A DNA stretch of 64,000 bases, from positions 3,662,966 through 3,726,965 of the forward strand of contig CBDFNJ010000002.1 of the NCBI GenBank assembly GCA_965250115.1. The letters are read 5' to 3'. The position numbers and the translations under genes are program-made. The stretch is from Candidatus Marinacidobacterales bacterium. Lineage in GTDB: Bacteria; Acidobacteriota; Vicinamibacteria; Marinacidobacterales; SMYC01. Below are positions 3,622-39,906 of this stretch, piece by piece (position 1 is the stretch's first letter; every line of letters begins with the position of its first letter). The notes below the pieces were generated by a model. It was not told the origin of the DNA and made no database searches. It saw only the letters and a program-made list of their open reading frames with translations.

Positions 3622-4305
3622 TTGTATCGGTCGAAGATGAACAAGACATTTCTTCTTGTACTCACGCTACTCTGGACTCTTCCCGCATCGAGCCGGGCCC
3701 AGGTCTCGGGCCAGGTCGAAGTTCTGGAAAAAGGCGGCGTGAAGCGCCCCGTCATTCAGGACGTGCTCGTCTATATTGACGGCGTTTCCGTCGAGACAAC
3801 GACGCAGGGTAGCGCCCGGCACCAGACGATCAGGTCCCGCAACAAGGCGTTCGAGCCCCGCGTCGCGGCGGTGCTCGCCGGCACGACGGTGACATTCCCC
3901 AACCTCGACGACATCATGCACAACGTGTTCTCGCTCTCGAAGGGAAACCGCTTCGACCTAGGACTCTACAAGTCGGGTGCGCAGAAGGACTTCGTGCTCC
4001 GGAATCCGGGCCTGGTTCGCGTCTACTGCAACATCCATCCGCAGATGAGCGCCTTCGTTCACGTCACGGACAACCCCTATTACACTTGGGCGCAGCCCGA
4101 TGGCGCGTTTCGCATCGAGGGTGTCCCACCGGGCCGCTACACTCTGAGGGTCTGGAATGAGCAGGAAGAGACGACGAAGCCGGTGCTCGTGACCGAGCAG
4201 GGAGCGAGCGGCGTGCTCGTTCAGCTCGACGTGAGCAGCTACAAGAGGCGCCCCCATCTCAACAAGTTCGGCAAGCCGTACAAGAAGAAACGTGGCAAGT
4301 ACTGA
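3622..4305 (+). CDS. secreted cupredoxin-like protein with C-terminal carboxypeptidase-regulatory-like beta-sandwich
   Basis: Signal peptide MNKTFLLVLTLLWTLPASSRAQ (alternative start 3637). It has a His in IMHNVFS and YCNIHPQM (Cys-x2-His-x2-Met), an amicyanin/pseudoazurin-type type-1 copper ligand pattern. The C-terminus AFRIEGVPPGRYTLRVWNE resembles CarboxypepD_reg. The 3' end overlaps the start of the downstream sensor by 14 bp. Confidence 0.7.
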   Translation: MYRSKMNKTFLLVLTLLWTLPASSRAQVSGQVEVLEKGGVKRPVIQDVLVYIDGVSVETTTQGSARHQTIRSRNKAFEPRVAAVLAGTTVTFPNLDDIMHNVFSLSKGNRFDLGLYKSGAQKDFVLRNPGLVRVYCNIHPQMSAFVHVTDNPYYTWAQPDGAFRIEGVPPGRYTLRVWNEQEETTKPVLVTEQGASGVLVQLDVSSYKRRPHLNKFGKPYKKKRGKY

Positions 4306-6931
4306 ATCCTTGTGGTCTCGGCTCAGCCTGCAGGCGAAGATTTTCTTTCTCTCCCTTTCACTCGTCGTCGGTCTCACCGGCGCACTCCTCCTGTTCTCGT
4401 ATCAACGCGCGACCCGGCTCGCCAACGAGTCGCTCAGCCGGGCTCTGACCAGTACCCGTCAGCTCTACAAAAATCTCGAGACCGACCGTCTCGAGAAGCT
4501 CGCGCTCATCAACTCGGTCCTCGTCGAAAGCCCGTACTTCAAAGCGGCGGTCGCGGAGATGGACGCGGCGACGACACTCGATTCCACCCTCGACATGGCC
4601 GAGCAGGTCGGAAGCGATTTCATGATCGTGACCGACTACGAGGGGAGAATCGTCGCTCGCACGGACGTTCCGACCCAGAGCGGGAGGGATCTCTCGACGA
4701 CCCCTCTCGTCGGTTATGCACTCGGGGGTGAGAGTGCCGGCGGTGTCTGGGGCGAAGACGGCCACCTTTACCACGCCGTTTCGGTTCCCTTGCTCGTCGG
4801 GCCCGAGCTGCTCGGAGCCGTCGTCACCGGCTACGAGATTGGCGACGAGCTCGCCCTTTACATCAAGGGCATCGCGGGCTGCGAGGTCGTTTTCTTTTCC
4901 GCGACCGAGAACGAGGCCTATCGCGAGACGGGCTCGACGCTCGCCGAAGCGACGAGCACGCTCCGGGAGTGGGTCGAGGGAGCCTCGATGGCGTCCGCGG
5001 AGGAGGACGTCCGGCTGTCGCTCGGAGGGGAGGAGTATCAGGCGGTCTTCGCCCCACTGACGACCGTCGACGACGAGCCGATCGGTCTGTTCGCGGCCCT
5101 GCGCTCGAGAGATCGCGAGCTCGCAGCGTTTCGCTCGTTTCAGCGCAACGTGCTGCTCGTCGGTGTGCTCGGTATCGGGCTCGCCGTCCTCGCGAGCCAC
5201 CTGCTCGCGCGTGGCGTGGTCCGGCCTCTCAAGAAGCTCGTGACCGTCACCGATCGTATTCGCGAGGGCGACTACGGAAGCGACGTCGAGGTCAACTCCG
5301 GCGACGAGGTCGGCGCGCTCGCGAAGAGCTTCCGCGCGCTCCTGGGAGAGCTTCGCGAGAAGCAGGTCATGGAGAAATTCATCTCTCGCTCGGCCGCAGA
5401 GATGATTCAGAAGTCCGACGCCGTTTCCGTCGTCACCGGCGGGCGCCGGGCAGTCACCGTGCTCGTCTCCGAGCTGAAATCGTACGCCGCCTTCAAGGAC
5501 GAGAGCGCGGAGCCGAGCGCCGTTCTCGAGCGGGTGAATCGCGCCCTCGAGCGGCAGGCCGAGCTCGTCGAGCGCTACGGCGGGCAAGTCGACAAGTTCG
5601 TCGGCGACCGGATGATGGCCGTCTTCAAGGGGGAGGACCGGGTCTGGCCCGCGATTCGCTGCGCGATCTCGATCCAGCATCTGCTCGAGGCCGATGGCGA
5701 CGAAGAGGCGCTCATGCCGGGCATCGGTGTCAGCGCGGGTGAAGTGATCTTCGGCGCCGTGGGTAGCTCCAATCGGCTCGACTATTCACTGCTGGGGCCC
5801 ACCGTTCACGTGGCCGAGCGCCTGGCTAGCGAAGCGCCTCCGGGCGACGTGCTCCTCGCTCAGAACGCCTACGCTCAGGTTCAGGATCGCGCGTCGGCTG
5901 AGTCGCTGAAACCACTGAAGCTCCAGGGTATCGACGAGGTGATTCCCGTCTACAGCCTCTCGACGGGTACGATTCGGGGGCAGCAGATCGCCTCGTCGCG
6001 GACGGACGCCGGGCTTTCGCAGCGGGACGCGCCCACGCTCGTGGATGGCACCCAGGAGCCGGCCATGACACTCAGCTCGCTCGAGCCGGGCGCGGTGCTC
6101 GGCAAGCGATACGAGATCCGGCGCGTGCTCGGCAGCGGCGGGATGGGGATGGTCTTTCAAGCGAAGGACCACGACCTCGACGAGCTCGTTGCGCTCAAGG
6201 TGCTGCGCCCGGAGATCGCCTCCATGAATCCCAGCATTCTGGAGCGTTTCAAGACCGAGATCCGCGTCGCGCGGCGGATCACCCATCGCAACGTCGTTCG
6301 GACTTTCGACTTCGGCGACGCCAATGGCATCAAGTTCATCAGCATGGAGTTCGTTCAAGGCATGACGTTGAAGCAGCTCATTCGCAGCAAAGGAGCCCTG
6401 CCGATCAGCGTCGGCCTCCAGATCGCGAAGCAGGCATGCAACGGTCTCGTCGCCGCTCACGAGCAGGGCGTCGTCCACCGCGACGTCAAACCGCAGAACA
6501 TGATGCTCACGCCGCAGAGCGAAGTGAAGATCATGGATTTCGGCATCGTACGCGAAAACGGCGAATCGAGCATGACGCAGACCGGGCTGGTGATTGGCAC
6601 ACCCGACTACATGTCTCCCGAACAGGCGGAGGGCAAGGCGGACCTGGATCAGCGAAGTGACATCTATTCGTTCGGGGTGGTGCTCTACGAAATATTCACG
6701 GGGTCGACGCCGTTCAAGGGAACGACGCCAATGGGCGTCGCGATGCAGCACATCCAGGATGCGCCTCCGATACCGCGAAGCCTGAACTCGCAGCTCCCGT
6801 CGGACGTCAAGCAGCTCATCCTGCGCTGCATGCAGAAAGCCCCGGACCAGCGGCATCAGAAGATGGCGGACGTCCAGGCCGAACTCTTTCGCGTCTCGGC
6901 CGCGGTGTCCCGCCAGAGCGCCACGGCTTGA
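4292..6931 (+). CDS. transmembrane sensor: periplasmic domain - HAMP - class III nucleotidyl cyclase domain - Hanks-type Ser/Thr protein kinase
   Basis: 879 aa. TM1 is FFLSLSLVVGLTGALLLF, followed by a periplasmic region of about 250 aa, then TM2 VLLVGVLGIGLAVLASHLLA. HAMP is LKKLVTVTDRIREGDYGSDVEVNSGDEVGALAKSFRALL. The cyclase-homology domain is RRAVTVLVSELKS...VDKFVGDRMMAVFKG...LGPTVHVAERLA. Kinase motifs are GSGGMGMVFQA, ALKVL, HRDVKPQNMML, DFGIV and GTPDYMSPEQ. Confidence 0.9.
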   Translation: MASTESLWSRLSLQAKIFFLSLSLVVGLTGALLLFSYQRATRLANESLSRALTSTRQLYKNLETDRLEKLALINSVLVESPYFKAAVAEMDAATTLDSTLDMAEQVGSDFMIVTDYEGRIVARTDVPTQSGRDLSTTPLVGYALGGESAGGVWGEDGHLYHAVSVPLLVGPELLGAVVTGYEIGDELALYIKGIAGCEVVFFSATENEAYRETGSTLAEATSTLREWVEGASMASAEEDVRLSLGGEEYQAVFAPLTTVDDEPIGLFAALRSRDRELAAFRSFQRNVLLVGVLGIGLAVLASHLLARGVVRPLKKLVTVTDRIREGDYGSDVEVNSGDEVGALAKSFRALLGELREKQVMEKFISRSAAEMIQKSDAVSVVTGGRRAVTVLVSELKSYAAFKDESAEPSAVLERVNRALERQAELVERYGGQVDKFVGDRMMAVFKGEDRVWPAIRCAISIQHLLEADGDEEALMPGIGVSAGEVIFGAVGSSNRLDYSLLGPTVHVAERLASEAPPGDVLLAQNAYAQVQDRASAESLKPLKLQGIDEVIPVYSLSTGTIRGQQIASSRTDAGLSQRDAPTLVDGTQEPAMTLSSLEPGAVLGKRYEIRRVLGSGGMGMVFQAKDHDLDELVALKVLRPEIASMNPSILERFKTEIRVARRITHRNVVRTFDFGDANGIKFISMEFVQGMTLKQLIRSKGALPISVGLQIAKQACNGLVAAHEQGVVHRDVKPQNMMLTPQSEVKIMDFGIVRENGESSMTQTGLVIGTPDYMSPEQAEGKADLDQRSDIYSFGVVLYEIFTGSTPFKGTTPMGVAMQHIQDAPPIPRSLNSQLPSDVKQLILRCMQKAPDQRHQKMADVQAELFRVSAAVSRQSATA

Positions 6932-13183: not shown

Positions 13184-13193
13184 GGAGAGCGTG

Positions 13194-14921
13194 ATGTTCA
13201 AAAGAAACATTCTGTTGACCACGATGTGCGTTCTCACCGCTATGGGCCTTTTGGCCCAGACTCAGATCACCTCCGGCGTGATCCGAGGCCGCGTTCTCGA
13301 TCAGACAGACGCCGTGCTGCCAGGAGTTACTGTCGAAGTCAGAAACACGGACACCAATCTGATGCGAACGATCGTTACGGACGGGGAGGGGCGCTTCGCG
13401 GCGCTGGCACTGCCACCGGGCCCCTACGTCGTCACCCTCACTCTACAAGGCTTCGCCAGGTTCACTCAGGACGGCGTGATCTTGACCGTGGGGCAGGCGA
13501 TCGACCTCACCATACAGATGCAGCTTACCGGGGCCCAGGAGACGATCACCGTCACCGGTACGACGCTCGTGCAAGTGTCCCGAACAGAAGCGAGCTCTAC
13601 GCTGAACCAGACGACGGTGGAGACGACACCGGTGCTGGGTCGCAAGTTCGAGGACCTGCTCACGCTCACGCCCGGTGTCAGCATCGTGCAGGGACCCGAT
13701 GGTGACATGATCAACTTCGCCGGGCAACGCGGGGCCTTCAACAATATCAGCCTGGATGGAGGCGACTACAATAACGGTTTCTTTGGCGAGCAGGTCGGCG
13801 GGCAGCGGGCCAACGTGGACATCACGCTCGACGCGATTCAGGAGTTCCAGGTGGTGGCCACGGGAGCGAACGCCGAGTTCGGCCGTACCGCCGGGGGCGT
13901 CGTCAACGTCGTCACCAAATCGGGCACCAATCGGGTGAGTGGAAGCGTCTTCCACTTCCAACGCCTGGAAGCGCTGACGTCCGAGGCTTCGGATGGCACG
14001 AAACTCACCGACTTTCACCGTGAGCAAACCGGCGCCACGGTTGGCGGGCCTATCGTCCGCGACCGAGCCTTCTTCTTCGTGGCTGCCGAGAACATCGGCG
14101 GCAACTTCGAACGGCCCAACCTGGGCCGGGCTATCGGAGAGCCCTGCTCCATTCCGAACCCCAACATTATGACGGACGAGGCGCTCATCAACTCCAGCGG
14201 GGATTGCCAGCACGTGGCGCTCCTCAACTTCTTTCAAGACGAGCTGGGGATGGACGAGGGACGTCCGGTGAAACACCCCATAAGCACAACGTCGGTTTTC
14301 TCCAAGTTCAACTTTCGCGTGGCGGATGGGCACGATCTCTCCGTTTCCTACAATTTTCTGGACTCCTCGAACGAAAATGCGACCTTTGACGTCGACACCT
14401 ATGGCACCTCGGCGAACGGGATCGAGGGCGACCAGGCGCGCATCCATGTCCTGAACTTGAATCTCGTCAGCACACCCTCGACGACGTTGCTCAACGAGCT
14501 CCACTTCACCTATTCGCGGGAAGATCGCCCGCGCACGGCGGCGAGCTCTAACTTGGCCGCGGACACCGGGATGGGATTCGACCCCTCCTTTCGCTTCGGT
14601 AATCCCTTTTTTCTCCAGCCCAACGTCGACGAGTTGTTCTGGCGCACGCAGATCAAGGACAACGTGACCATCGTGGCCGGCGATCACACCATCAAAGTGG
14701 GAGGTGAGTGGATCCACTCGGTGAACGACCAAGTCTTTCGCGGCTTCTTCACGGGACGCTATATCTTCGATAGCACGACGGGCTTCCTGCGCTACGCTTC
14801 GCCCGCCGCGCCGGGAGGATACGGCCCCACTACGGTGACCTGCAGCGACGACAGCTACGTCACCTACCCGGCACCCTGTCCGGGCGGCGGCGATTTCACC
14901 GGCGGGCCCCTGCTTTTTTAG
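13194..14921 (+). pseudogene. TonB-dependent receptor (CarboxypepD_reg + plug type), C-terminally truncated
   Basis: Signal peptide, then CarboxypepD_reg-like ITSGVIRGRVLDQTDAVLPGVTVEVRNTDTN...DGEGRFAALALPPGPYVVTL. Plug-like TPGVSIVQG...GQRGAFNNISLDGGDYNNGFFG follows. The ORF ends after 576 aa at a TAG 44 bp before metF. Full-length receptors of this type are about twice as long, so the barrel is mostly missing. Confidence 0.6.
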
Positions 14922-25904: not shown

Positions 25905-27497
25905 TCAGCTCCGTTCGGCTTTCTTGTGGAGTCCCATGTCCTCGAGACGTTTGTAGAAGGTCTCCGAAGAGACGTCCAGAAGCTTGATGGCTTTCCTTCG
26001 ATTGCCCTTCGTGAACTCGAGCATCTGAAGAATGTGTTTTCTCTCGGCATCTTCCACGACGTGCCTGAGCGACGCTGGGCGGCCCGAGCCGCTCCCAGCG
26101 CCCGCCGAGCGCCACGGACCAGGGGCCGAGCGGAGAAAGTCGGGAAGATCGTCGGGAAGCACCTCGGCATGGTCGACAAGGCAGGACACGCACTCCACGA
26201 CCTGCTGGAGCTGTCGCACGTTGAACTCCCAACCGTAGCTCTTGAGCACGTCGACGGTTCCCGGCGCGAAGCGCTTCGGCGAGCCGGAACGACCGAACCG
26301 CTCGGCGAAATGCTCGACCAGCACGGGGATGTCGTCGCAGCGCTCGCGCAGTGGAGGAATCACGATGCAGTGGCCGAGCCGCGCGAGCAAGTCGGTACGA
26401 AATCTTCCTTGTTCCATCAGCTTCTCCAGAGGCCGGTTGGTGGCCGAGACCACCTGCACGTCGATGTGCTTCGGGCTCGTGTCGCCCACGCGATAGATTT
26501 CACCGGAGTCGAGGAAGCGAAGGAGCTTGACCTGAACGGCGGGATCGATATCCCCGATCTCGTCGAGAAACAGCACACCGCCGTCCGCCACCTCGAAGTA
26601 ACCCTTCTTGTCCTGGCTCGCCTCGGTGAATGCGCCTTTCACGTGCCCAAAGAGCTCCGACTCGACGAGGTTCGGGGCGAGCGCGGGAATCGAAACGGGA
26701 ATGTAGGGCTTTCCCGACCTTTTCGAGTTCGCCGCGTAAGCCCGGGCAAAGAGCTCTTTGCCCGTGCCCGTCTCGCCGCGCAAGAACACCCGGGCTCCCG
26801 CGGCGGCGAATCGCCGCACATCCTCGTAGGCCTGTAGAAGCGCGGGGGCGTGCCCGACGATCCGATGCCGCAGAAGCTCGCCTTGAAGCAGCTCAAGTGC
26901 GTCCACTTGTGTTCTCAAGTCGGCGGATGCGCGGTCGTGCTCCTCGATGCGATCGAGGAGCAAGGACGCGTAGCCCGCCGCCGCCGTCAAAAACTGCAGG
27001 TCGCGACGGTCGAAGGGTTGGTGGTCGCGCCGATCCACGTAGATGAGAGCCCTCACCGGGCTCTTTCCCAGCGGCACGCAGATGACTGAGCGGATGCCGA
27101 ACTTTTGGACGCTCACCGACTTTTCGAATTTGGGATCCCGCAGGACGTCGGTGGCGAGAAGAGCGAGGCCCGATTCGCGCGACCGCTCGAGCGCGGTGCG
27201 ACTGATGCTCCAATCATCCTCGGGCCGATCCAGGTCGAGCGCGTGCACGGCGAGTGGCCGGTAGGCGCCGTGGGGAGAAACGGCGAGGACACAGGCGTGA
27301 TCCGGGGCGAGATGCTCGATGATCGCACGTTGGAAGGTGCGAAGGACCTGTCCGACGTCGCGCTGCTCGAGCAGGAGCTTTCCGATCTCGTAGAGCGCGC
27401 GCATCCGTCCCGAGGCAGACGTGGCGGCCTCGTCGGGCAAAGGGGCGGCCGGGTCCAGAGTAGCTTGGTTCGCGAGCTCGTCCACGATGCCTCCCAT
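25905..27497 (-). CDS. sigma54-dependent transcriptional activator with N-terminal GAF domain
   Basis: GAF-like region RMRALYEIGKLL...VCVPL. AAA+ Walker A GETGTGKELFARA. GAFTGA-loop variant reads GAFTEA. Walker B GVLFLDEIGD. C-terminal Fis-type HTH (HKILQMLEFTKGNRRKAIKLLDVS). Start set at ATG 27497 (MGGIVDEL). The track's TTG start at 27617 adds 40 aa. Confidence 0.85.
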   Translation of the reverse strand: MGGIVDELANQATLDPAAPLPDEAATSASGRMRALYEIGKLLLEQRDVGQVLRTFQRAIIEHLAPDHACVLAVSPHGAYRPLAVHALDLDRPEDDWSISRTALERSRESGLALLATDVLRDPKFEKSVSVQKFGIRSVICVPLGKSPVRALIYVDRRDHQPFDRRDLQFLTAAAGYASLLLDRIEEHDRASADLRTQVDALELLQGELLRHRIVGHAPALLQAYEDVRRFAAAGARVFLRGETGTGKELFARAYAANSKRSGKPYIPVSIPALAPNLVESELFGHVKGAFTEASQDKKGYFEVADGGVLFLDEIGDIDPAVQVKLLRFLDSGEIYRVGDTSPKHIDVQVVSATNRPLEKLMEQGRFRTDLLARLGHCIVIPPLRERCDDIPVLVEHFAERFGRSGSPKRFAPGTVDVLKSYGWEFNVRQLQQVVECVSCLVDHAEVLPDDLPDFLRSAPGPWRSAGAGSGSGRPASLRHVVEDAERKHILQMLEFTKGNRRKAIKLLDVSSETFYKRLEDMGLHKKAERS

Positions 27498-27705
27498 CTC
27501 GATCACCGGACGGACTATTGTGTTGTGGGGGACGAAGACTTGTCCACAGTTGGCGAGATCGACGACCGGGCATCGAGCTCTTGACCGAGGTCCTCCTCCG
27601 TCGAATTGGTAGAGCAATACCTATGCCAGGAGCGAAGGCGCGGTTCGCGGGAAAGCGGAGGGACAGCGTTTCGATTCCCGAACGGGTGCTCGATCTTCGA
27701 AACGT

Positions 27706-29265
27706 TTATTGAAGCTGGAACGTCACGGTGAGCGTCGCTTCGACAGCGATCGGAACGCCGTCTTGCGTGGCCGGATCGAACTTCCATTGGCGGACGGCTT
27801 CGACCGCAGCCTCGTCCAAAAACCGAATGGAACGCACCACTACGATATCGGTGACGTCGCCCTCGGGGGTGATGGTGGCCCGAACGATGACGTCACCTTG
27901 TACCCCCATTCTTCGAGCGATGGCGGGGTACTCGGGAGGATCGTAGGTCACTCTGCGCGCCGGGGTAAGCACCGGTTCGGCTTGCTGATCCTCGGGGTCC
28001 GGTTCTTCGTCGCGTTCCGGAATCGGCATGGTCGGTGAGCTTACGACCTCGGGCTCAGGATTTTCCGTTGGCTCGACGTGGGTCTCGGAGACGTCCTCAA
28101 TGAAGCTCTCGGGATCGGGGTCGGGAGCCGTAACGGGCGGTGAAGGTGTCGGTGTCGGCAGCAATTCCTTCGGCGCGGGGGCGGCGGCCTTCTGCTGACG
28201 GGTAGCATCGTCGGGCGTCGTGACCGGAGGCAGCGTTCGGATGCTCGGCGTCGTAAGGGGTGGCGCCGGAAGCACGGGTAGCGTCGTAACCATCAGGCCC
28301 GCCGTGCACCAGGACACGCTGATAGCAGCCGCAGCCGATGCCGCGAAGAGGAACCACCGCCTCCGTACGTCCCGCTCTGACTTGACGCAGCCGCCACGCG
28401 CGTGTCGATCGGTTGCCGTCTGGAGCGAAGCCACGAAGGCGTCCACCGTGGTGGGGCGCACCGCGCGGACGCGAGCGAGCGCCTTCCGAAGCGGCTCGTG
28501 CCAACACCGATCCGGCACGAGGGAAAGAACACGCCGCTGAACTTCCGCCTCCGGAGCGACGTGGAGGTCGTGATTGAACGCGGGCTCGTCTTCCGTACGG
28601 AAGGGCGCCTTGCCGGTCAACATGGCGTAGGTGACCGCCCCGAGCGAAAATACGTCGGTGCGTGCGTCGAGAGCCTTATCGGGATGAAGCGCCCTCTGCT
28701 CGGGCGAAGCGAAACCGATCTTTCCGAACGTGAGACCGAGGGTGCTCGGCGCCGACGAAGCATAGCCGACAGTCTTGGCCACACCGAAATCCAGGACCTT
28801 GGCCTGACCGTCCGAGCAAATCATAATGTTGTCAGGTGACACGTCGCGATGCAGAATGCCCTGCTCGTGCGCGGCGGCGAGCCCGCTCGCGATCTGGCGG
28901 ACGACGTCGAGCGTTTCCTCCGGCGTAAAGAGCTTTCCCGAGAGGAGATGTTCCCGGATGGTTTCGCCCTCGACATACTCCCAGACGATATACTTCGTCC
29001 CGTCGTCGAGCATCGCGTAGTCGTAGAGCGCCACCACGTTCGCATGACGCAAACTCTCGACGAGACGCGCCTCGTTGTGGAAACGCTGCACGAACTCGTC
29101 GTCATCGGCAAGCTCGGTACGCATCAGCTTGATTGCACGCAGCGCGTCCAGACGCAGGTGGCGGGCTCGATAGACCGCGCCCATGCCTCCGCGACCGATG
29201 AGACCTTCGATCCGATACCTGCCATCGATGACGTCACCTTTGGCAAGAATCTTGCTCTCAGGCAT
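27706..29265 (-). CDS. Hanks-type Ser/Thr kinase - TM helix - Pro-rich linker - TonB C-terminal domain fusion
   Basis: Start MPESKILAKGDV (ATG 29265). Kinase motifs GRGGMGAVYRA, AIKLM, HRDVSPDN (catalytic-loop Lys replaced by Ser), DFGVA and GFASPEQ. TM segment WFLFAASAAAAISVSWCTAGLMV. Linker PVLPAPPLTTPSIRTLPPVTTP... The C-terminal 90 aa (TYDPPEYPAIARRMGVQGDVIVRATITPEGDVTDIVVVRS...AVRQWKFDPATQDGVPIAVEATLTVTFQL) match the TonB C-terminal fold. Confidence 0.85.
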   Translation of the reverse strand: MPESKILAKGDVIDGRYRIEGLIGRGGMGAVYRARHLRLDALRAIKLMRTELADDDEFVQRFHNEARLVESLRHANVVALYDYAMLDDGTKYIVWEYVEGETIREHLLSGKLFTPEETLDVVRQIASGLAAAHEQGILHRDVSPDNIMICSDGQAKVLDFGVAKTVGYASSAPSTLGLTFGKIGFASPEQRALHPDKALDARTDVFSLGAVTYAMLTGKAPFRTEDEPAFNHDLHVAPEAEVQRRVLSLVPDRCWHEPLRKALARVRAVRPTTVDAFVASLQTATDRHARGGCVKSERDVRRRWFLFAASAAAAISVSWCTAGLMVTTLPVLPAPPLTTPSIRTLPPVTTPDDATRQQKAAAPAPKELLPTPTPSPPVTAPDPDPESFIEDVSETHVEPTENPEPEVVSSPTMPIPERDEEPDPEDQQAEPVLTPARRVTYDPPEYPAIARRMGVQGDVIVRATITPEGDVTDIVVVRSIRFLDEAAVEAVRQWKFDPATQDGVPIAVEATLTVTFQLQ

Positions 29266-29334
29266 GGACGACGGAAGAATAGTTCTGTCGCTGAAAAGAG
29301 TCAAAGCGAACGGTGTGGTAATTAAGGCAGAGAC

Positions 29335-31457
29335 ATGAGGTATCGAAACACGGGAGCCATAACGCTCTGGGTGCTCGCAGCTTCGCTCGTGCACGCCCAG
29401 GAACAAGAGCGCAAACCCGAGGAACAGGAAGAAGAAAGACCCAGCTACCAGGAGGTTGTCGTCGTGAGCGTATCCCGACTAGAGGAGCAACTCGTCAACG
29501 CGCCCGCGTCGGTGAGCGTTGTTTCCTCCGAGGTCATCGAAGTGTCACCCGCGCAGAACTACGGCGATTTGCTTCGCACTGTGCCCGGGCTCAACGTCAT
29601 CCAGCTTTCCGCCCGCGATATCAACGTGGCGAGCCGCGCCCAAACCGGAACGATCGTGACCTCCCAACTCGCCCTCGTGGACGGCCGCACGGTGTATCAG
29701 GATTTTCTCGGCTTCGTCATGTGGGATCTCATCCCAATCCAGACTGCCGAGATCGACCAGATCGAAGTCATTCGCGGGCCCGTCTCCGCCGTTTGGGGCG
29801 CGAACGCGATGACCGGCGTCGTCAATATCATTACGAAAGCGCCGCGTGACATGCAGAGGACCACGTTGACCGTCGGCTATGGGGGATTCGATCGCGCGGT
29901 CGAAGGGCGGGAGGAGGATAGTGGGGCGCTTCTCTCCCTGGGCGCGACCCACGCCCATGCCGTCAACGATCGCCTGGCCTACAAGCTGTCCGCCGGCGTG
30001 CTCACACAGGATCCGTTTCCCCGGCCCGCCGGGATCGTTCCGAACCCAACTCAAACGCCCTATCCGGCGTTCACAAACCCGGGCAGCACGCAGCCAAAAT
30101 TTGACTTTCGCCTCGACTACGACATTCCGGCGCCATCCCAGGATCCGACTCTCGTGCGCAAGTGGGTCGTGGGAGCGGGCTAGCCCGCTCCCAGGGGATC
30201 ATCCACACCGGCATCGGCCCGTTCGAGGTGGACCCAGATACATCGCTTGGCTATGAACGGTTGAGCTATCGGCACGGGAGCCTCGAGCTCAAGTTCTTCA
30301 CGAACGCGATCTCAGGTGAAGAGCCCGCCCTTCTCACGAGAGGATCCGATGGCGAGCCCATCGTCTTCCGGCTTCAAAATCGCACCTACGACGTCGAGAT
30401 GACGGACTTTCGTGCGCGCGGAAACTCACATCTCATCTCCTACGGTGGCAACTTCCGGCACAACGACTTCGACCTGTCTCTCGCTCCGGCGGGGGACAGT
30501 CGAAACGAGGGGGGCTTCTATGTTCAGGACGAGATCTTCCTCTCCACCCATTTGCGTTGGATCGTGGGTGGACGGGTCGATCGTTTCGACCTCCTGGACG
30601 ACGTTGTTTTCTCGCCCCGTACCGCGCTCTTGCTGAAGCCAACGCAGGACCACACGTTTCGGGTCTCGTTCAACCGTGCGTTCCGCGCGCCCGCCTTCGT
30701 CAACAACTTCCTGGATATCCAGGTTTTGAGCGATATCGATCTGGGCGCCGGCACGCCTTTCGTCTTCCCCGTCAACGCTCGGGGAAGCACCAATCTCAAA
30801 GAGGAATCCTTGACGGCTTACGAGATCGGCTACACCGGCGGCGGCGGGCGCGGACTGGTGCTGAACGCCGCCTTCTTCCTGAACGATACCCGGAACATCA
30901 TTCTGTTCACGCAGACAGGAAGCTACGACAGCCAGAACCCGCCTCCCGGCTGGCCCCTTCCCCCCGGAGTACTGGACCGTCTGGTCGCCCAGGGTATGGG
31001 GCTTCCTTCCGAGCTCGCTTACCGGAACTTTGACCGGGTGCAGAACCGCGGCGTCGAGCTTTCGCTCGACGCGCGCCTCGACGCCCACTTCGGCGCCTTC
31101 GCCAACTATTCCTGGCAGGACGAGCCCGAGCCCTTCAGCTTCGACATCTCGGAGCTAAACCTCCCGTCGAGCTATCTCGCGAACGTCGGCTTCGACTTCA
31201 AAAGCGGCCGCTACTTCGGAACCCTATCCGCGAGCTTCGTCGCCGAAGCCTTCTGGCAAGACGTCCTCGACTCCCGCTTCCATGGGCCGACCGACGCTTA
31301 CACACTCGTGAACGGAACCTTCGGCATTCGCTGGGAAGACGGCAAGCTCACGACCGCAGTAAAGGTAACGAACCTCTTGAACGACGAGATCCAGCAGCAC
31401 GTGTTCGGCGACGTCATCAAACGGCAGATCGTAGGAGAGCTTCGGTTTCGTTTCTAG
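29335..31457 (+). pseudogene. TonB-dependent receptor, frameshifted (plug in 29335..30183, barrel in 30162..31457)
   Basis: Signal peptide, then TonB-box-like EVVVVSVS. Plug ...DGRTVYQDFLGFVMWDLIPI...IEVIRGPVSAVWGANAMTGVVNI. Barrel ending ...VGELRFRF. The two parts are in different frames with the shift at about 30160-30200 (DYDIPAPSQDPTLVRKW / GIIHTGIGPFEVD). Confidence 0.8.
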
Positions 31458-31705
31458 TAGCTGATAGGACTGATTGGTATTTGTATTCGGGGCTGGCGCG
31501 CTGCGCCTCGTTCCCGAAGGCCGTAGCTTCTTCCGCCACCGGCGCACGAAACCCAAAGGCAGAAGTTATCGACGTGGGGGAGCATCCCCTCAGCCCCGAC
31601 GATATCGACTTTGTTATAGACCCCCAACACATTGAAATAGCTTGGTTTGTACGCCGGCTTCGGAGTGCGGCCAATGGCACGCTGGTTGCTTTCGCTTGAT
31701 ACGAC

Positions 31706-32599
31706 ATGTTGAAGCTCCTTTTGATGGCACTCGTCGCGACGCCGCCGTCGGGCACCGACGTCGCCGAGACTCTGCTTCGTGCTACGGCCTACGATCGGAA
31801 TCTCGAAGCGAGAACTTCCAAGGGCTTCCGTCTGGGTGTCGCCTTCGTTCCCGACCTCGCCGAGTCGCGAACGGCGGCTAAGCAGTTTGCCGAGGCCGCG
31901 AACGCGCTCCAAGCCGCGGGCTCCCAGTTCGAACCGGTATGGGTTGAGCTCGTCGCCGTCGAGAGCGAGTCCCAGCTCTATAAATGGATGGAAGAGCACC
32001 ACGTCTCCGCGCTCTACGTACCCGCCGGTCTGGAAGAGATCGTCCCCTCGATCGTCAGCGCGTCGGAGGCGGCTGGGGTGTTTTCGATCGCCGGTTCGTC
32101 CGCCGACGTCGAGCGGGGTCTAGTCATCGGCCTCCGCGTCGGCGGCGGTTCTAAAAAACTCGTGGTGAACATGGCGGCGGCAGAACGCTCCGGTGTCGAC
32201 TTCGACGCGGTTGTGAGGCAAGTTGCGCTGCGGGTCGGTGGCGCTCCCGCCAAGAAAGACCGGAACGAATTGCGCGAAGCGCTGGTTCGCTATACCGAGG
32301 CAATCCAAAAGCGTGATCTCGACGCGCTCCGCGGCGTATGGCCAGCGCTCGAAGACGACGACGAAAAGCGCATCGTGGCCTCCTTCAAAATGACCCGCTC
32401 TCACAAAGTCTCGTTTGCCGTTCTTCGCATCGATCGTCAGGGAGAACAAGTTCGCGCACGCGTGCGGCGCGCGGACAGGCTCGTGACCCGTGAAGGGCAA
32501 ACGGTCACCGCGGGAACACTCGTGGATATCTCGTTCTCGAAGGCCAGCAACGGCGTTTGGCAGATCGAGTCGATGGCGAACGCCAACCCTCTCTCGTAG
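31706..32599 (+). CDS. YfiR-like DUF4154 periplasmic protein with C-terminal NTF2-like segment
   Basis: 297 aa. KLVVNMAAAERSGVDFDAVVRQVALRV resembles DUF4154/YfiR. The C-terminal ~90 aa (SFKMTRSH...VWQIESMANANPLS) look NTF2-like. The N-terminal signal peptide is weak. Confidence 0.6.
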   Translation: MLKLLLMALVATPPSGTDVAETLLRATAYDRNLEARTSKGFRLGVAFVPDLAESRTAAKQFAEAANALQAAGSQFEPVWVELVAVESESQLYKWMEEHHVSALYVPAGLEEIVPSIVSASEAAGVFSIAGSSADVERGLVIGLRVGGGSKKLVVNMAAAERSGVDFDAVVRQVALRVGGAPAKKDRNELREALVRYTEAIQKRDLDALRGVWPALEDDDEKRIVASFKMTRSHKVSFAVLRIDRQGEQVRARVRRADRLVTREGQTVTAGTLVDISFSKASNGVWQIESMANANPLS

Positions 32600-33032: not shown

Positions 33033-33886
33033 ATGGCTGCGAGCTCGCGTTGGCTGCTGCTTGCATTTTCCCTTACTTTGTCTGCCCGCGCCTCATCGTT
33101 CCAGTACCGGTACCCCGATTACATCGATGAAAAGTATCGTCCCGCCTACCACATGGTTCCGGGCGACAGAGAGCGCATTCGCTTCATCAACTCCGTACCC
33201 ATCACTAAGATCTCCCTCGAGCGGCCAGGCTGTTATAGCGGCTTGTGTGGGGTGTATAAAGTCACTTTCTACAAGCGCGGCGCGGCCATTTATGAAGGCA
33301 GGAGAAACGCCGAGCGGGTGGGCAAGTTCATCGGAAAGGTCAGCCTTCAAGATTACGGGAAGCTCTGTCACTTGCTCGAGAAGCTCGACTTCCAGAGCTT
33401 CAGGGATGCCTACGTCTCACCGGAGCTCCATGGCAAGACCGTCACCATCCGTGTGGAGCTAAAGGACTCTACGGAGAAAGTCATCCTCGACTATGGCCTT
33501 TGGGAGCCGGTCGAGCTCTGGACTCTCCAGAAAACGATCGATGCGCTGACACACGAAACCACGTGGAAAGACATGGACGAGTCCTCTTTGGTTGGCGCGC
33601 TGGAGTTCGGAGATGCGGACTGGGTCCGCGCCGCGATTGCGCATGGAGCAGACGTGAACATCGAGCTCGAGCACGGTCTCACTCCATTGATGTTCGCGGC
33701 ACTCGAGGGACAAGCCAGCGTCGTGCGAGTGCTGCTCGAATCGGGCGTCGACGTGAAGGCCACCATGGAGGGAGGCATCAATGCCTTGCTGGTGGCAGTC
33801 CAAGGCGGTGACGCCGAAACGGTAGGCCTCTTACTCGAGGCCGGTGCCAAGCCGCCGTCCAACCCAGAGTACGGTGTGATCTTTCT
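33033..33886 (+). pseudogene. secreted ankyrin-repeat protein, 5' part (gene split by ISL3 insertion)
   Basis: Signal peptide MAASSRWLLLAFSLTLSARA. About 190-aa N-terminal domain, then ankyrin repeats (HGADVNIELEHGLTPLMFAALEGQASVVRVLLESGVDV...). The reading frame runs into the IS inverted repeat at 33887. Confidence 0.8.
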
Positions 33887-35270
33887 GGGTCTACGCGGAT
33901 TCGTGTGGGTTGAAAACTGCATTTCTGGGTAATGGCGGAAGGAAAGCCGCCACGATCTTCAGCTTGAGATATTCCTCGTCGCGATAGCCGTAGGCGCGTC
34001 GTTGCAGAACACGGATTTTGTTGTTGACCCCTTCAACTAGGCCGAGACTGACTTTGTTCTCCGGATGACAGTAGGAGGCGATACCATCCCAATGGGACTC
34101 GATCATACCGGCGAACTTCTGGTACGGATGCAGGCGTTGCCATTTGAGGCTGTCTTTCCAACGAGTGAAAAAGGCGCGAGCGCCGCGTTCGGTGCGGTAA
34201 TCCCAGAGTTGCCCGAAGGCCTCCTTCAAAATAAAGGCGGTGTTCAGGCGCCGGTTGGCCTGGAGCAACTTTTTGAGTGCGCGGCGACCGTCTAGGCTCA
34301 GGTTCTCCCGCCGGGAAAGCAAAGTGTAACGCTGCCCCTTGATGTACGACCGGTCCTTGCCGCTGAGGCGTTTGTACTCACCGCGCCGGACCTCATCGAG
34401 GGCCTTTGACAGATGACGCATGATATGAAACTTGTCGAAGATGATCCGCGCATTAGGCGCGTTGTGAATCACCGAGTTCCGGAAGGGCTTCCACATATCC
34501 ATGGCGGCCAGCTTGATACGGGCGCTTTTCTTTCCGCCCAGCGCCTTGAAGAACAAATCGATGTCGGTTTCTTTGCGACCCTCACCGCCCACCCAGATGG
34601 GACGCGCCCGCTCCAGGTCGCTGACAATGACGCGATAGTTATGTCCCTTGCGGATGGAGATCTCATCGACACCGATGGCCCGAGGCGCCGGTAGCCCCGC
34701 CCGGTCGACCTGCTCTTGCATGTAGAGCGTATCCAGAGCCTTCACCGTACCGTGGTGCAGACGTTCCATCTCGGCCACCGCCTTGTTCGGCATATCCCTG
34801 CACAGCTTGCCCACATGCGTCGCAAAACGCTGGGTGTAGCGCGAGTTGTTCGCCAGCAAGTCTAGGTGTTCTACATGCACACCGCCGCACCCAGAACAGA
34901 TGACGCGCCAACGCTCGTATTCCAGATAGATCCGCCAGCCTGCCAACGACAGGTCGCGGACCCGGCACACTTGCTTGTCATAGCGCCCCCGGCACCGTTG
35001 CCCACAGTAAGAGCACACAGCTGTTTTTTTCGCCTCTTGAGCTGGATGACGCGGGCGTATCGGTCACCGAATAGACCCTTCAATCCGGCACCAACCACGA
35101 AACCTGGCAGCGCAAACAGCGAGCGGATCGACTGGGAATTTTTCACTCGGTTAGCCTATCCTGAAAATGGACCACTTTTCAGCACCTGATGAAGTACTCG
35201 ATACCTTTTCCACACAATGAGTTACACTGTTTTTCCGTCAGAACTTACCCACACGAATCCGCGTTAACCC
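33887..35270 (-). mobile_element. ISL3-family insertion sequence, copy A (1384 bp), flanked by 8-bp target duplication ATCTTTCT
   Basis: Terminal inverted repeats GGGTTAACGCGGATTCGTGTGGGTAAG / GGGTCTACGCGGATTCGTGTGGGTTGA. Identical 8 bp at 33879..33886 and 35271..35278. The ankyrin ORF resumes in frame after the duplication. Confidence 0.9.
33891..35146 (-). CDS. ISL3-family transposase (requires -1 frameshift at the T7/A7 run 35023..35029)
   Basis: N-terminal part MKNSQSIRSLFALPGFVVGAGLKGLFGDRYARVIQLKRRKK (GTG start). After a -1 slip at CGA_AAA_AAA_C it continues TAVCSYCGQRCRG...C.GCGGVHVEH (zf-ISL3) ... DEVRRGEYKRLSGKDRSYIKGQRYTLLSRRENLS (DDE_Tnp_ISL3). The 375-aa main ORF is intact in this copy. 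Confidence 0.8.
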
Positions 35271-36257
35271 ATCTTTCTTATGGGCGTGGCGATGAACGGT
35301 CTCGCGGACCTCGTGCCGATTCTGCTCGCGCAAGGTGCGGATGTGAACGCTACCGTCGAAGAGGAGATCTTCGGCTTCCGGCCCGGCCAGACCGCGCTCA
35401 TGCTGGCTGCCGAAGGGGGCTACGAAGAGACCGTGAGGACCTTGCTGCGGGCCGGTGCCGATAGCAGCGCCAGAGACCAGCGTGGAATCACCGCATTGCA
35501 GCTCGCCGCTGCTGGTGGTCACGTTGACGTGCTACGTCTTCTGTTGGGTGCCGGCGCCAACGTGAACGCCGCGACTAGGAAGGACGGCAAGACGGCGTTG
35601 ATGGGCGCTGCGGAGATGGGGCATCTTGACAGCCTTCGCCTCCTGCTCCAGGCCGGTGCCGAGGTGAACGCGAAAAGCGACAAAGACGAAACCGCCCTGA
35701 CCCTGGCAGCAGTGAATCGTCGTCCGGAGATGGTTGAGACGTTGCTGTCGGCGGGCGCCGAGGTGAATCCGCAAGCCAAGTTGACTCCCCTATTGGCGGC
35801 CGCCATGGGCGGGAACATTCGTATCGTCGAGGCCTTGCTCGAAAAAGGGGCCGAGGTCAATGGAAAAACGACCGATGAGGAGACTGCCCTGATGGCCGCG
35901 GCGGCGAACGATCACCTCGAGGTCCTCCACCTCCTGTTCAGCAAAGGGGCGAAGGTGAATGCGAGCGATCGGGACGGTCGCACCCCGCTCATACTGGCCG
36001 CTATGGGCCGCCGAGCCAAGACCACGCAAGCCTTGCTAGACCAAGGGGCGCAGGTGAATGCGAAAACCATAGGTGGGATGACCCCACTGATCTACGCTGC
36101 AGCGTTTGGTGCGACGGAGACGGTGGAAATTCTAATCAAAGCCGGCGGCGATGTGAACGCGAAAACCGAGGGCGGGGAGACGCCCCTCCGGAAGGCCACC
36201 CTGTCTGGTCACTCCGAGATCGCTGAGCTGCTCAAGAAAGCCGGCGCGAAAGAATAG
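35271..36257 (+). pseudogene. secreted ankyrin-repeat protein, 3' part (9-10 ankyrin repeats)
   Basis: Continues the frame of 33033..33886 after the target duplication (IFL-MGVAMNG...). Repeated G.TALM.AA..GH.E.V..LL.AGA.VNA units. Confidence 0.8.
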
Positions 36258-36840: not shown

Positions 36841-37179
36841 GTGGACATCAACCGAGGCGCGACAATGCGCCTGGAGGCGTCCATGGGAGAACGACGACGC
36901 AGGAAGTTCACGGGGGAGTTCAAGAAGGAAGCGGTCCGGCTGTTCAGGGAGGGCGAGCGCAGCATCGGCCAGGTCGCTAAGGAACTGGACCTGACGGAAT
37001 CGGCCCTTCGAAACTGGGTGAAACAATACAAAGTTGATCACGGTGAAGGTCCACGCAAGGCTCTGACGACGGCGGAACGTGATGAGCTCCGTTCGCTACG
37101 GCGTCGAGTGCGTACGTTGGAGCAAGAGCGAGAAATATTAAAAAAGGCGGCGGCCTTCTTCGCGAAGGAAAGCGAATGA
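36841..37179 (+). CDS. IS3-family transposase OrfA (HTH)
   Basis: RRRKFTGEFKKEAVRLFREGERSIGQVAKELDLTESALRNWVKQY...LRRRVRTLEQEREILKKAAAFFAKE is a classic IS3 OrfA. Confidence 0.85.
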   Translation: MDINRGATMRLEASMGERRRRKFTGEFKKEAVRLFREGERSIGQVAKELDLTESALRNWVKQYKVDHGEGPRKALTTAERDELRSLRRRVRTLEQEREILKKAAAFFAKESE

Positions 37180-38031
37180 GATTCAAGTTCATTCACGCGG
37201 AGCGGGCCAACTACCCGGTGCGGGTGATGTGCCGAGTCCTGAGGGTATCGACCAGCGGCTACTACGCTCAGATGAAGCGCGCGCCCAGCAGGCGACAGTG
37301 TGAGGATGGGAAGCTGAAGCTGCGCATCCAAGCGATCCACGCCCATAGCCGTGGTACCTACGGCAGGGAGCGTGTACGTCGCCAGCTTGACGGGGAGAAC
37401 GTCGAGGTGGGCAAGCAGCGAGTGGCACGGCTGATGCGTGAGATGGGCCTGCAGGGCCTGCCCAGCAAGCGTTTTCGCCGCACGACCGACAGCAAGCACG
37501 ATCGCCCTATCGCGCCCAACGTGCTCGGCTGGCACTTCGAAGCCGAACGAGCGAACCAGTTCTGGGTGACGGACATAACCTTCATCCGGACTTGGGAAGG
37601 CTGGCTCTACTTGGCGGTCATCCTCGATCTGTTCTCGCGTCGTGTCGTCGGCTGGGCGATGCAGTCCCACCTGCGCGCAGAGCTTGCTCTCGAGGCGCTT
37701 CACATGGCCTTGGGGCGCCGTCTGCCTGGAAGTGGCTTGGTGCATCATTCAGACCGTGGTACTCAATACGCGGCTGCGTCTTACCAGGCCGTGCTCGATG
37801 AGCCGCAAGGGTAATTGTTGGGACAACGCCGTGACCGAGAGCTTCTTCGGCACGCTCAAGACCGAGCTCCTCCACCGATGTAGTTGGCCAACACGACGTA
37901 TGGCCAAAGACGCCGTCGCGAGCTACATCGAGGGGTTCTACAATCCGTATCGACTCCACTCGTCACTCGATTACAACAGCCCAATGGTGTTCGAACGGAT
38001 TCATGACCTCAAAACGGCTCATGCGAGATAA
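37176..38031 (+). pseudogene. IS3-family transposase OrfB (integrase core), internally frameshifted
   Basis: Two overlapping track ORFs (37176..37814, 37642..38031) together cover the rve domain. The frame switch lies near 37790-37810. Confidence 0.75.

Positions 38032-38671: not shown

Positions 38672-39906
<1,235 letters not shown>

Follow-up and report, generated by a model that had tools for sequence, protein, structure and literature searches.

The locus described here lies in a stretch of 64,000 nucleotides from a Candidatus Marinacidobacterales bacterium (Acidobacteriota, Vicinamibacteria; GenBank assembly GCA_965250115.1, contig CBDFNJ010000002.1, forward-strand positions 3,662,966 to 3,726,965), which was analysed as a whole and is called the window below, with its first nucleotide as position 1. 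Three genes stand at its centre (Table 1): a Hanks-type Ser/Thr kinase fused to a TonB C-terminal (TonB_C) domain, a TonB-dependent receptor that is divergent from it, and a sigma-54 activator, i.e., a bacterial enhancer-binding protein (bEBP), which follows the kinase on the same strand. An initial annotation, made from the nucleotide sequence, proposed that these genes form a kinase-based cell-surface signalling module. The domain assignments and the recurrence of the gene neighbourhood in related bacteria, described below, support a functional module, and the way in which such a module might signal across the envelope is weighed thereafter.

Table 1. Positions of the genes, protein regions and candidate regulatory elements of the kinase-receptor locus in the window.
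Feature	Position	Strand	Basis
GAF / AAA+ sigma-54 activator / HTH_8 bEBP with GAFTEA loop	25905..27485	(-)	Pfam, orthologues
-24/-12 sigma-54 promoter TGGCAT-N5-TTGC upstream of the bEBP gene	27614..27628	(-)	Consensus scan
Candidate enhancer of the bEBP, two tandem palindromes GTTTCGA-N3-4-TCGAAAC	27668..27703	(-)	Motif scan
Hanks kinase / transmembrane helix / Pro-rich linker / TonB_C fusion gene, 519 residues, stop codon 27706-27708	27706..29265	(-)	Pfam, orthologues, AlphaFold2
Periplasmic TonB C-terminal domain, residues 443-519	27709..27939	(-)	Pfam, NCBIfam, 6i97_D alignment, model confidence (pLDDT)
Periplasmic Pro-/Glu-rich linker, residues ~329-442, predicted disordered	27940..28281	(-)	Composition, pLDDT
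Single transmembrane helix, residues ~304-328	28282..28356	(-)	Hydropathy, orthologue alignment, AlphaFold2
Cytoplasmic kinase domain, residues ~17-290	28396..29217	(-)	Pfam, orthologue motifs, PDB and Foldseek matches
Sigma-54-like element TGGCAA-N5-TTGC, 80 nt upstream of the receptor ATG, in the first codons of the kinase gene	29241..29255	(+)	
Sigma-70-type promoter of the kinase gene, TTGACT-17-TATTCT	29276..29304	(-)	Promoter scan
TonB-dependent receptor, divergent from the kinase gene; frames 29335..30183 (Plug) and 30162..31457 (barrel)	29335..31457	(+)	Pfam, intact orthologues
TonB box of the receptor, EVVVVSVS, residues 40-47, after a Glu-rich stretch	29452..29475	(+)	Orthologue conservation
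Exact -24/-12 site TGGCACGCTGGTTGC, 17 nt before the DUF4154 open reading frame	31675-31689	(+)	Only exact consensus match in the window
DUF4154/YfiR-like open reading frame, neighbour outside the module	31706..32599	(+)	Pfam

Genes of the kinase-receptor locus

The fusion gene had been described as combining a kinase domain, one transmembrane helix, a Pro-rich spacer and a TonB_C fold, and each of these parts is borne out by Pfam, NCBIfam, structure alignment, hydropathy or the AlphaFold2 model. Pfam assigns residues 17 to 235 to Pkinase (Pfam ID PF00069; E = 1.2e-42, 146.6 bits against a cutoff of 31.7) and residues 443 to 518 to TonB_C, which is matched over the full profile (E = 2.5e-23, 82.7 bits against a cutoff of 24.6). 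The C-terminal domain also passes the NCBIfam model tonB_Cterm (TIGR01352; 70.6 bits against a cutoff of 27.1), and the last 89 residues of the protein align end to end with the Pseudomonas aeruginosa TonB C-terminal domain (6i97_D, E = 1e-11). The best match of the kinase domain is PknB, both by sequence among PDB entries (E = 9e-42) and by fold with Foldseek (E = 1.7e-15), with Mycobacterium tuberculosis PknB and PknA being nearest in either comparison. The fusion family as such is not covered by any curated NCBI family in the NCBIfam scan.

The sequence RDVRRR on the N-terminal side of the transmembrane helix follows the positive-inside rule, and the helix leads into an acidic linker of about 114 residues, in which residues 363 to 442 include 20 prolines (25%) and 13 glutamates in 80 residues. 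In the AlphaFold2 model, a helix spans residues 294 to 326, residues 328 to 428 are disordered with a predicted local distance difference test score (pLDDT) below 50, and the TonB_C domain is predicted confidently (pLDDT of about 90). The model was built on an alignment of 13 sequences, and its catalytic and activation segments have low confidence, so the loop discussed in the next paragraph was not interpreted from it. A single transmembrane helix with the N-terminus inside, followed by a Pro-rich linker and a TonB_C domain, indicates a topology with the kinase in the cytoplasm and the TonB_C domain in the periplasm, joined by a spacer of TonB-like length.

The catalytic loop of the kinase reads HRDVSPDN (positions 28827-28850 on the (-) strand), with the Lys of the HRDxKxxN motif, which contacts the gamma-phosphate in canonical kinases, replaced by Ser. 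The initial annotation took this as a hint of a pseudokinase, a reading which we have dropped as unsupported. The glycine-rich GRGGMG, the AIK Lys, the alphaC Glu (E65), HRD, N146, DFG and SPE are invariant in 13 fusion orthologues, as is the loop Ser itself, and HRDxSPxN is common to 60 of the 120 closest kinases, which have many different architectures, including PEGA and TPR sensors (proteins P0018-P0120; here and below, L- and P-numbers label related loci or contigs and related proteins, respectively). A scan of genomes with a profile that includes the motif [LFH]HRD[VI]SPDN gave at least 600 matches. With the other catalytic motifs invariant and the Ser loop this widespread, the substitution is no sign of a pseudokinase; it appears to be a trait of a large subfamily of Acidobacteriota and Myxococcota kinases under purifying selection, and no private lesion of this protein. 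We found no paper in open-access text that mentions the HRDxSP strings.

The receptor gene starts at position 29335, 69 bp from the start of the kinase gene, in the divergent arrangement of the initial annotation, and the TonB-box-like EVVVVSVS named there is present as well. Pfam finds a Plug (8e-17) and a barrel (1e-36) in the receptor and nothing else, so that the STN signalling domain (PF07660) is missing, and the protein ends in ...LRFRF with a terminal aromatic residue. The TonB box lies about 19 residues beyond the predicted signal-peptide cleavage site, within an N-terminus whose mature residues 1 to 40 contain SYQEVVVVSVSRLEE, and SYEEVVVVSVSKLQE is kept at the TonB box of the receptor orthologues. 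The wider receptor family has E-[TE]-VVV-[ST]-A-[ST]-K at this position. A TonB box distinctive of kinase-linked receptors was considered and rejected, the difference being only an A-to-V change (VVVVSVS against VVV[ST]A[ST]), which is not diagnostic, as the kinase-linked receptor of L092 has the common form. The reading frame of the receptor is indeed broken, as had been noted before: alignment to intact orthologues of 675 to 720 residues maps the break to the loss of one nucleotide in a GGG run near 30172-30180, and one additional G there would give back a receptor of 707 residues.

The third gene encodes, as annotated initially, a bEBP on the kinase strand that has a GAF domain, no receiver domain and a GAFTEA loop. 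Its domains are GAF, Sigma54_activat (Pfam ID PF00158; 9.4e-57), AAA_lid_14 (1.7e-16) and HTH_8 (6.5e-6), and its reading frame is open up to 27617, with the orthologues placing the start at 27485. Orthologues are 64 to 71% identical, and GAFTEA is invariant in five of them. The bEBP family is large, with more than 120 clusters at 55% identity or more, and its loop at the GAFTGA position is GAFTEA in 103 and GSFTEA in 15 of 120 members, i.e., one of the two in 118 of 120.

Conservation of the neighbourhood and its regulatory DNA

Orthologues of the fusion protein share its architecture at 43 to 62% identity, and those with a named source are from Vicinamibacteria (Acidobacteriota). A profile search of 1.84 billion representative proteins returned seven full-length and two truncated clusters, followed by a drop in score from 718 to 539 bits before ordinary kinases begin, which shows the orthologous family to be small; it is restricted to a single lineage. 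The loci were grouped into seven independent lineages, namely the window together with the nearly identical L001, L002, L003 to L005, L006, L007, L008 and L009, and the metagenome contig L092. An orthologous receptor (57 to 70% identity) stands beside the orthologous kinase in all seven, and the two genes are divergent and 69 to 330 bp apart, with the exception of L006, where insertion sequence (IS) elements are inserted between them. An orthologous GAF-bEBP is encoded within 6 kb of the kinase in five of the six lineages with enough flanking sequence.

As a control we used 80 genome loci of related HRDxSPDN kinases among the matches listed, which are paralogues and add no new orthologous loci. 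None of the 80 has a receptor homologue within 10 kb, where the query was one receptor sequence at E <= 1e-5 and highly divergent receptors could escape, and four have a bEBP. The enrichment over controls is significant for the receptor (7/7 against 0/80, Fisher test, p = 2e-10) and for the bEBP (5/6 against 4/80, p = 2e-5). The initial annotation had named a TonB_C score of the C-terminal domain and recurrent synteny of the fusion with its partners as tests of its proposal; both are found, and the comparative evidence supports a functional module.

The reciprocal comparison covered 80 metagenome loci that encode receptors of this family (40 to 65% identity), and the orthologous kinase is present only at L092, which carries the closest receptor (65%). 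The next-closest receptors (58 to 60% identity) have housekeeping neighbours, such as SpoT, a Mrp/NUBPL-type ATPase and a 2-oxoacid:ferredoxin oxidoreductase, and give no clue to the substrate. These relatives that lack the kinase indicate that the partnership is peculiar to a single sub-branch within the receptor family.

The contig L103 (606-5304) carries a second arrangement, in which an extracytoplasmic function (ECF) type sigma factor is divergent to a receptor of the same family (49% identity), which is directly followed by an unrelated kinase-TonB_C protein (33% identity) with the canonical loop HRDIKPTN. A kinase-TonB_C protein and a receptor are paired here for a second time, independently and together with another transcription factor, in what looks like a kinase-based counterpart of FecI-FecA-FecR. 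More distant kinase-TonB_C proteins are P0087, P0101 and P0106. Three further kinases next to relatives of the receptor were not counted as support: those in L138 and L162 have no TonB_C domain, one being a multi-transmembrane protein and one STAND-like, and the one in L126 is cut by the contig end.

Four further members of the bEBP family were sampled for their context, a small sample from genomes in which kinases are abundant. A kinase-TPR gene lies 15 nt upstream of the bEBP gene in L172, a kinase-PEGA gene lies 3 to 4 kb away in L173 and L174, whose arrangement is the same, and no kinase is found within 8 kb in L175. The bEBPs beside the TPR and PEGA kinases are 58 to 59% identical to the one described here. 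These contexts support the view that Hanks kinases and this bEBP family are paired more generally, and that the sensor domains would be exchangeable.

Sigma-54 promoters were searched in the 64 kb with the consensus TGGCAC-N5-TTGC, allowing at most one mismatch. The scan gives five sites, of which three are at this locus and on the appropriate strands. Upstream of the promoter of the bEBP gene, the tandem palindrome begins 3 nt past the kinase stop codon and 40 to 75 nt upstream of the -24 element. It is the only tandem site in the window, while shuffled sequences lead one to expect 0.02 per window. The same motif, read from the sequences, precedes nine sigma-54 promoters in L002, L003, L006 and L008; the automated scan found seven of these nine sites and missed both sites of L002. 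The distance to the promoter in these relatives is mostly 40 to 110 nt and about 230 nt in L008. We therefore regard the motif as a candidate enhancer of this bEBP.

An exact or one-mismatch sigma-54 site directly follows the kinase gene in L002, L003, L006 and L008. Such sites precede TAtT and the bEBP gene in L002 and L006, the bEBP gene in L008, DctP in L002 and a gene for a small beta-barrel protein in L006, while those of L003 precede a gene for a 90-residue protein together with TAtT-DctP-DctQM, a phosphoesterase-like gene and a gene for a 405-residue protein. The sigma-54 output in the relatives thus consists of the bEBP operon, a TAtT-associated tripartite ATP-independent periplasmic (TRAP) transporter and other genes, and not of the receptor. 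The conserved -24/-12 promoters with their shared upstream motif also argue that the bEBP with its GAFTEA loop is active.

TAtT is a TPR lipoprotein (PF16811), and the TAtT-associated TRAP loci lie at 9631-10557 in L002, 10246-14203 in L003, 9776-10660 in L006 and 3458-3916 in L092. TRAP transporters of this type have been linked to hydrophobic or lipid ligands, and their presence beside the kinase in relatives is a hint to the substrate of the receptor, which may be a hydrophobic carboxylate or resemble a lipid. A tblastn search of the 64-kb window did not find TAtT, DctP or DctQM, and the only enhancer-promoter pair in the 64 kb of this genome is the autoregulatory one of the bEBP gene itself.

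No sigma-54 promoter or tandem enhancer is found upstream of the receptor in the orthologous loci. The sigma-54-like element before the receptor gene of the window, having no counterpart there, may be specific to this lineage and due to chance. The kinase gene is preceded by a near-consensus sigma-70 promoter, TTGACW-N17-TATTCT, in all six lineages examined (the window, L002, L003, L007, L008 and L092). With only 10 nt from the end of the -10 element to the ATG, and no Shine-Dalgarno sequence, the kinase mRNA is probably leaderless or almost so. The picture that these elements give is that of a kinase which would be expressed constitutively, a receptor outside sigma-54 control and a sigma-54 regulon as the output.

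A possible trans-envelope signalling module

We consider it an evenly balanced proposition that the locus is a trans-envelope signalling module, in which the TonB_C domain reads the TonB box of the receptor and the kinase acts on the bEBP. Binding of a ligand to the receptor would free its TonB box into the periplasm, as is established for BtuB, FhuA and FecA, and the tethered TonB_C domain would capture the box by strand pairing in the manner of TonB. This capture would alter the oligomeric state or the position of the kinase and hence its autophosphorylation, PknB-type receptor kinases being known to be controlled in this way. The kinase would next act on the co-conserved GAF-bEBP, which would bind the tandem GTTTCGA..TCGAAAC enhancer that follows closely after the kinase gene and switch on -24/-12 promoters. 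The promoters seen in relatives would make the bEBP itself, the TAtT-associated TRAP transporter and a small number of further envelope genes the output, so that the receptor would be the antenna and an inner-membrane uptake system the response. From the interpretation given in the initial annotation, the TonB_C domain and the synteny have thus been retained, whereas the pseudokinase hint and the DUF4154 gene as a part of the module have not.

Several observations weigh against this signalling route. Synteny points to a functional link and gives neither its direction nor the contacts between the proteins. The TonB box of the receptor is ordinary and nearly identical to that of relatives that lack the kinase, with no mark of a dedicated partner in its sequence, and an adjacent kinase-TonB_C gene is absent at 78 of the 80 loci of the receptor family. 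The distant fusions P0101 and P0106 have no adjoining receptor, so that a receptor partner does not follow from the kinase-TonB_C architecture as such. The GAF domain could respond to a small molecule independently of the kinase, which would then have another substrate, and no FHA domain or phosphatase is encoded near the locus. The loss of the catalytic-loop Lys may lower kinase activity. Finally, with its receptor frameshifted, the present copy may be inactive, and the transporter genes are missing from the window as described above.

The generic TonB box and the distant fusions without a receptor neighbour also fit a different division of roles, which we regard as unlikely: the kinase and the GAF-bEBP would signal as a pair, while the TonB_C domain tethers the protein to peptidoglycan, has some other ligand in the periplasm or probes the TonB boxes of numerous receptors, and the receptor is adjacent only through a shared regulon. 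The pairing of bEBP relatives with kinases that have TPR or PEGA sensors, which makes the sensor end look interchangeable, points the same way. Against it, the receptor is the most constant neighbour of the kinase across the seven lineages and is kept where the bEBP and TAtT have been lost or moved (L007 and L003), it is divergently paired with the kinase and not placed under the sigma-54 promoters, and in L103 an unrelated second kinase-TonB_C gene again directly follows a receptor of the same family. The constant receptor partner could instead indicate that the fusion is a dedicated TonB paralogue which energises the neighbouring receptor, similar to HasB and HasR, the kinase being a regulatory appendage; the full TonB C-terminal domain and the Pro-rich linker of TonB-like length would suit this role. 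We consider it very improbable. In Escherichia coli TonB, a Ser-x3-His motif in the transmembrane helix is needed for coupling to ExbB/ExbD. The transmembrane helix of the fusion, WFLFAASAAAAISVSWCTAGLMVTTL, and those of all orthologues have no His and thus no SxxxH motif, no gene for ExbB or ExbD (MotA_ExbB, ExbD) is called in the roughly 8 kb to either side at those related loci that have gene tables, and the cytoplasmic part is a complete, conserved kinase, not a short tail. Together these features make an energising TonB unlikely and a passive reader of the TonB box more likely.

A further question is whether this particular copy is a decaying remnant, with the receptor a pseudogene, the transporter genes gone and the kinase drifting, which we find doubtful although it deserves serious consideration. 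The frameshift of the receptor is identical in L001, which comes from a different sample and matches the window at 99.67% identity over 14.3 kb, and the nonsynonymous to synonymous substitutions between the window and L001 number 8:2 in the kinase, 7:2 in the receptor and 6:8 in six flanking housekeeping genes (Fisher test, p = 0.066), counts which are small. Together with the missing transporter genes and the IS elements near the locus, they are hints of decay. On the other hand, the kinase, the bEBP, the enhancer and the promoters are intact, and the frameshift amounts to one base within a run of G. Similar breaks occur in long-read metagenome assemblies, where the kinase relatives P0002, P0003 and P0015 end early through apparent frameshifts in the Pro-rich linker and L005 and L007 contain split or fused genes, so that a systematic sequencing error is equally possible.

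Returning to the signalling module, we tentatively propose, at somewhat less than even confidence, a broader version of it. Here, the TonB_C domain would have been repurposed as a passive TonB-box reader wired to a Hanks kinase, with interchangeable outputs, a GAFTEA bEBP in the present loci and an ECF sigma factor in L103. The module would then be a branch of a wider Acidobacteriota pathway, in which kinases with TonB_C, PEGA or TPR sensors control one family of GAF-bEBPs.

The closest functional analogue appears to be FecA-FecR-FecI, with which the locus shares a TonB-dependent receptor paired with a single-pass inner-membrane protein that spans the periplasm, plus a dedicated transcription factor for uptake genes. 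None of the defining components of that system is present here. An STN domain is missing from the receptor, a Hanks kinase with a TonB_C domain stands as the transducer where that system has a FecR-type anti-sigma factor, and a sigma-54 activator as the output where it has an ECF sigma factor, although L103 does have the latter. Signal transfer would be by phosphorylation in place of regulated proteolysis, with the TonB box as the contact. Neither a FecR-type anti-sigma factor nor a FecI-type ECF sigma factor was found in the window or the orthologous loci.

The fusion resembles E. coli TonB, P. aeruginosa TonB1 and Serratia HasB in its transmembrane helix with the N-terminus inside, its Pro-rich spacer in the periplasm and the end-to-end alignment of its C-terminal domain with solved TonB C-terminal domains, and it is paired with one receptor, as HasB is. 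It differs from TonB and HasB in having a kinase of 300 residues in place of the short tail, no His of the SxxxH motif and no exbBD nearby. Its kinase domain, which is nearest to PknB and PknA, its single transmembrane helix and its extracytoplasmic sensor are like those of PknB and PknD, for which activation by sensor-driven dimerisation is the established model. Here, however, the sensor is a TonB_C domain and not PASTA or a beta-propeller, the loop Lys is replaced by Ser, and the kinase is coupled to a sigma-54 activator. The activator itself has the GAF, AAA+ and HTH_8 domains of NifA, NorR and FhlA and likewise no receiver, its best NCBIfam similarity being to NifA, below the cutoff. It differs from them in its GAFTEA or GSFTEA loop in place of GAFTGA and in being recurrently encoded beside Hanks kinases.

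Transcription factors under the control of Ser/Thr kinases are known from Myxococcus, where FHA-domain bEBPs are regulated in this way. In these as in the present locus, a Hanks kinase acts ahead of a specialised transcription factor, in the position that a histidine kinase or an anti-sigma factor would otherwise have, and the same holds for PknT/EcfP, the direct phosphorylation of an ECF sigma factor by a Ser/Thr kinase being the subject of the work listed as reference 20 of PMC7826278. No TonB_C sensor or receptor partnership is reported for those two systems, and the bEBP of the present locus has a GAF and not an FHA domain. The TonB_C fold outside the TonB-ExbBD energiser also has precedents, namely the MxcH receptors with an N-terminal TonB_C-like domain (NCBIfam NF038079) and the tail domains of AgmX/PglI (NF033768), and the Myxococcus gliding proteins GltG and GltJ carry a TonB_C domain in a context other than TonB. 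Unlike the protein described here, these have no kinase fusion and no link to a sigma-54 activator. A kinase-TonB_C protein, or its link to a receptor, was not found described in open-access literature.

To our knowledge, the only route by which TonB-dependent receptors signal inward combines an N-terminal signalling domain with a FecR-type anti-sigma factor and an ECF sigma factor, and we know of almost no signalling pathway that has been studied in soil Acidobacteriota. The TonB box is a universal sign of ligand occupancy of a receptor. If the proposed route is true, the TonB box itself can be a signalling output, a Hanks kinase can stand in for an anti-sigma factor, and sigma-54 activators without a receiver can be driven by Ser/Thr phosphorylation, which would amount to a third, phosphorylation-based form of receptor-dependent signalling across the envelope. 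It would also give a function to the common, uncharacterised Pkinase-TonB_C architecture, to the large family of GAFTEA bEBPs and to the TAtT-associated TRAP transporters of soil Acidobacteriota. This significance is tempered by the fact that the fusion family is small and restricted to one lineage and that the copy in the window is possibly inactive.

Neighbouring genes outside the module

The initial annotation also described a DUF4154/YfiR-like periplasmic protein after the receptor. An open reading frame is present there, and its match to DUF4154 (PF13689) lies above the gathering score, although it is weak and partial (E = 1.8e-6, 28.5 bits against 24.9, profile positions 63-142 of 143), with no NCBIfam match. 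The gene is not conserved with the module, being absent from five other lineages and from the 80 receptor loci, and is, judged by this distribution, not part of it. No enhancer of the tandem-palindrome type is found in the 260 nt upstream of its sigma-54 promoter, suggesting that another sigma-54 activator may control the DUF4154 gene.

Elsewhere in the window, a protein of 879 residues encoded at 4292-6931 (+) combines dCache_3, HAMP, an adenylate/guanylate cyclase and a Hanks kinase, an unusual sensor with two output domains. At 13191-14921 (+), a protein of 576 residues has CarboxypepD_reg and Plug domains and matches only the first 64 of 838 positions of the Oar-type barrel profile, with the MTHFR gene starting 45 nt after this reading frame; it looks like a second, truncated TonB-dependent receptor.

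Beyond the DUF4154 gene, an ISL3 transposase gene lies at 33891-35018 (-), and two transposase genes of the IS3 family (rve) lie at 37176-37814 (+) and 38989-39906 (+). Between about 34.0 and 40.3 kb, the IS elements of the window are not the same as those of the 99.7% identical L001 (1-3225), an indication that IS elements have been active recently. Two ankyrin-repeat proteins, a kind of protein that is uncommon in free-living bacteria, are encoded at 33033-33932 (+) and 35280-36257 (+), one being fused to DUF6438 and one having seven repeats.

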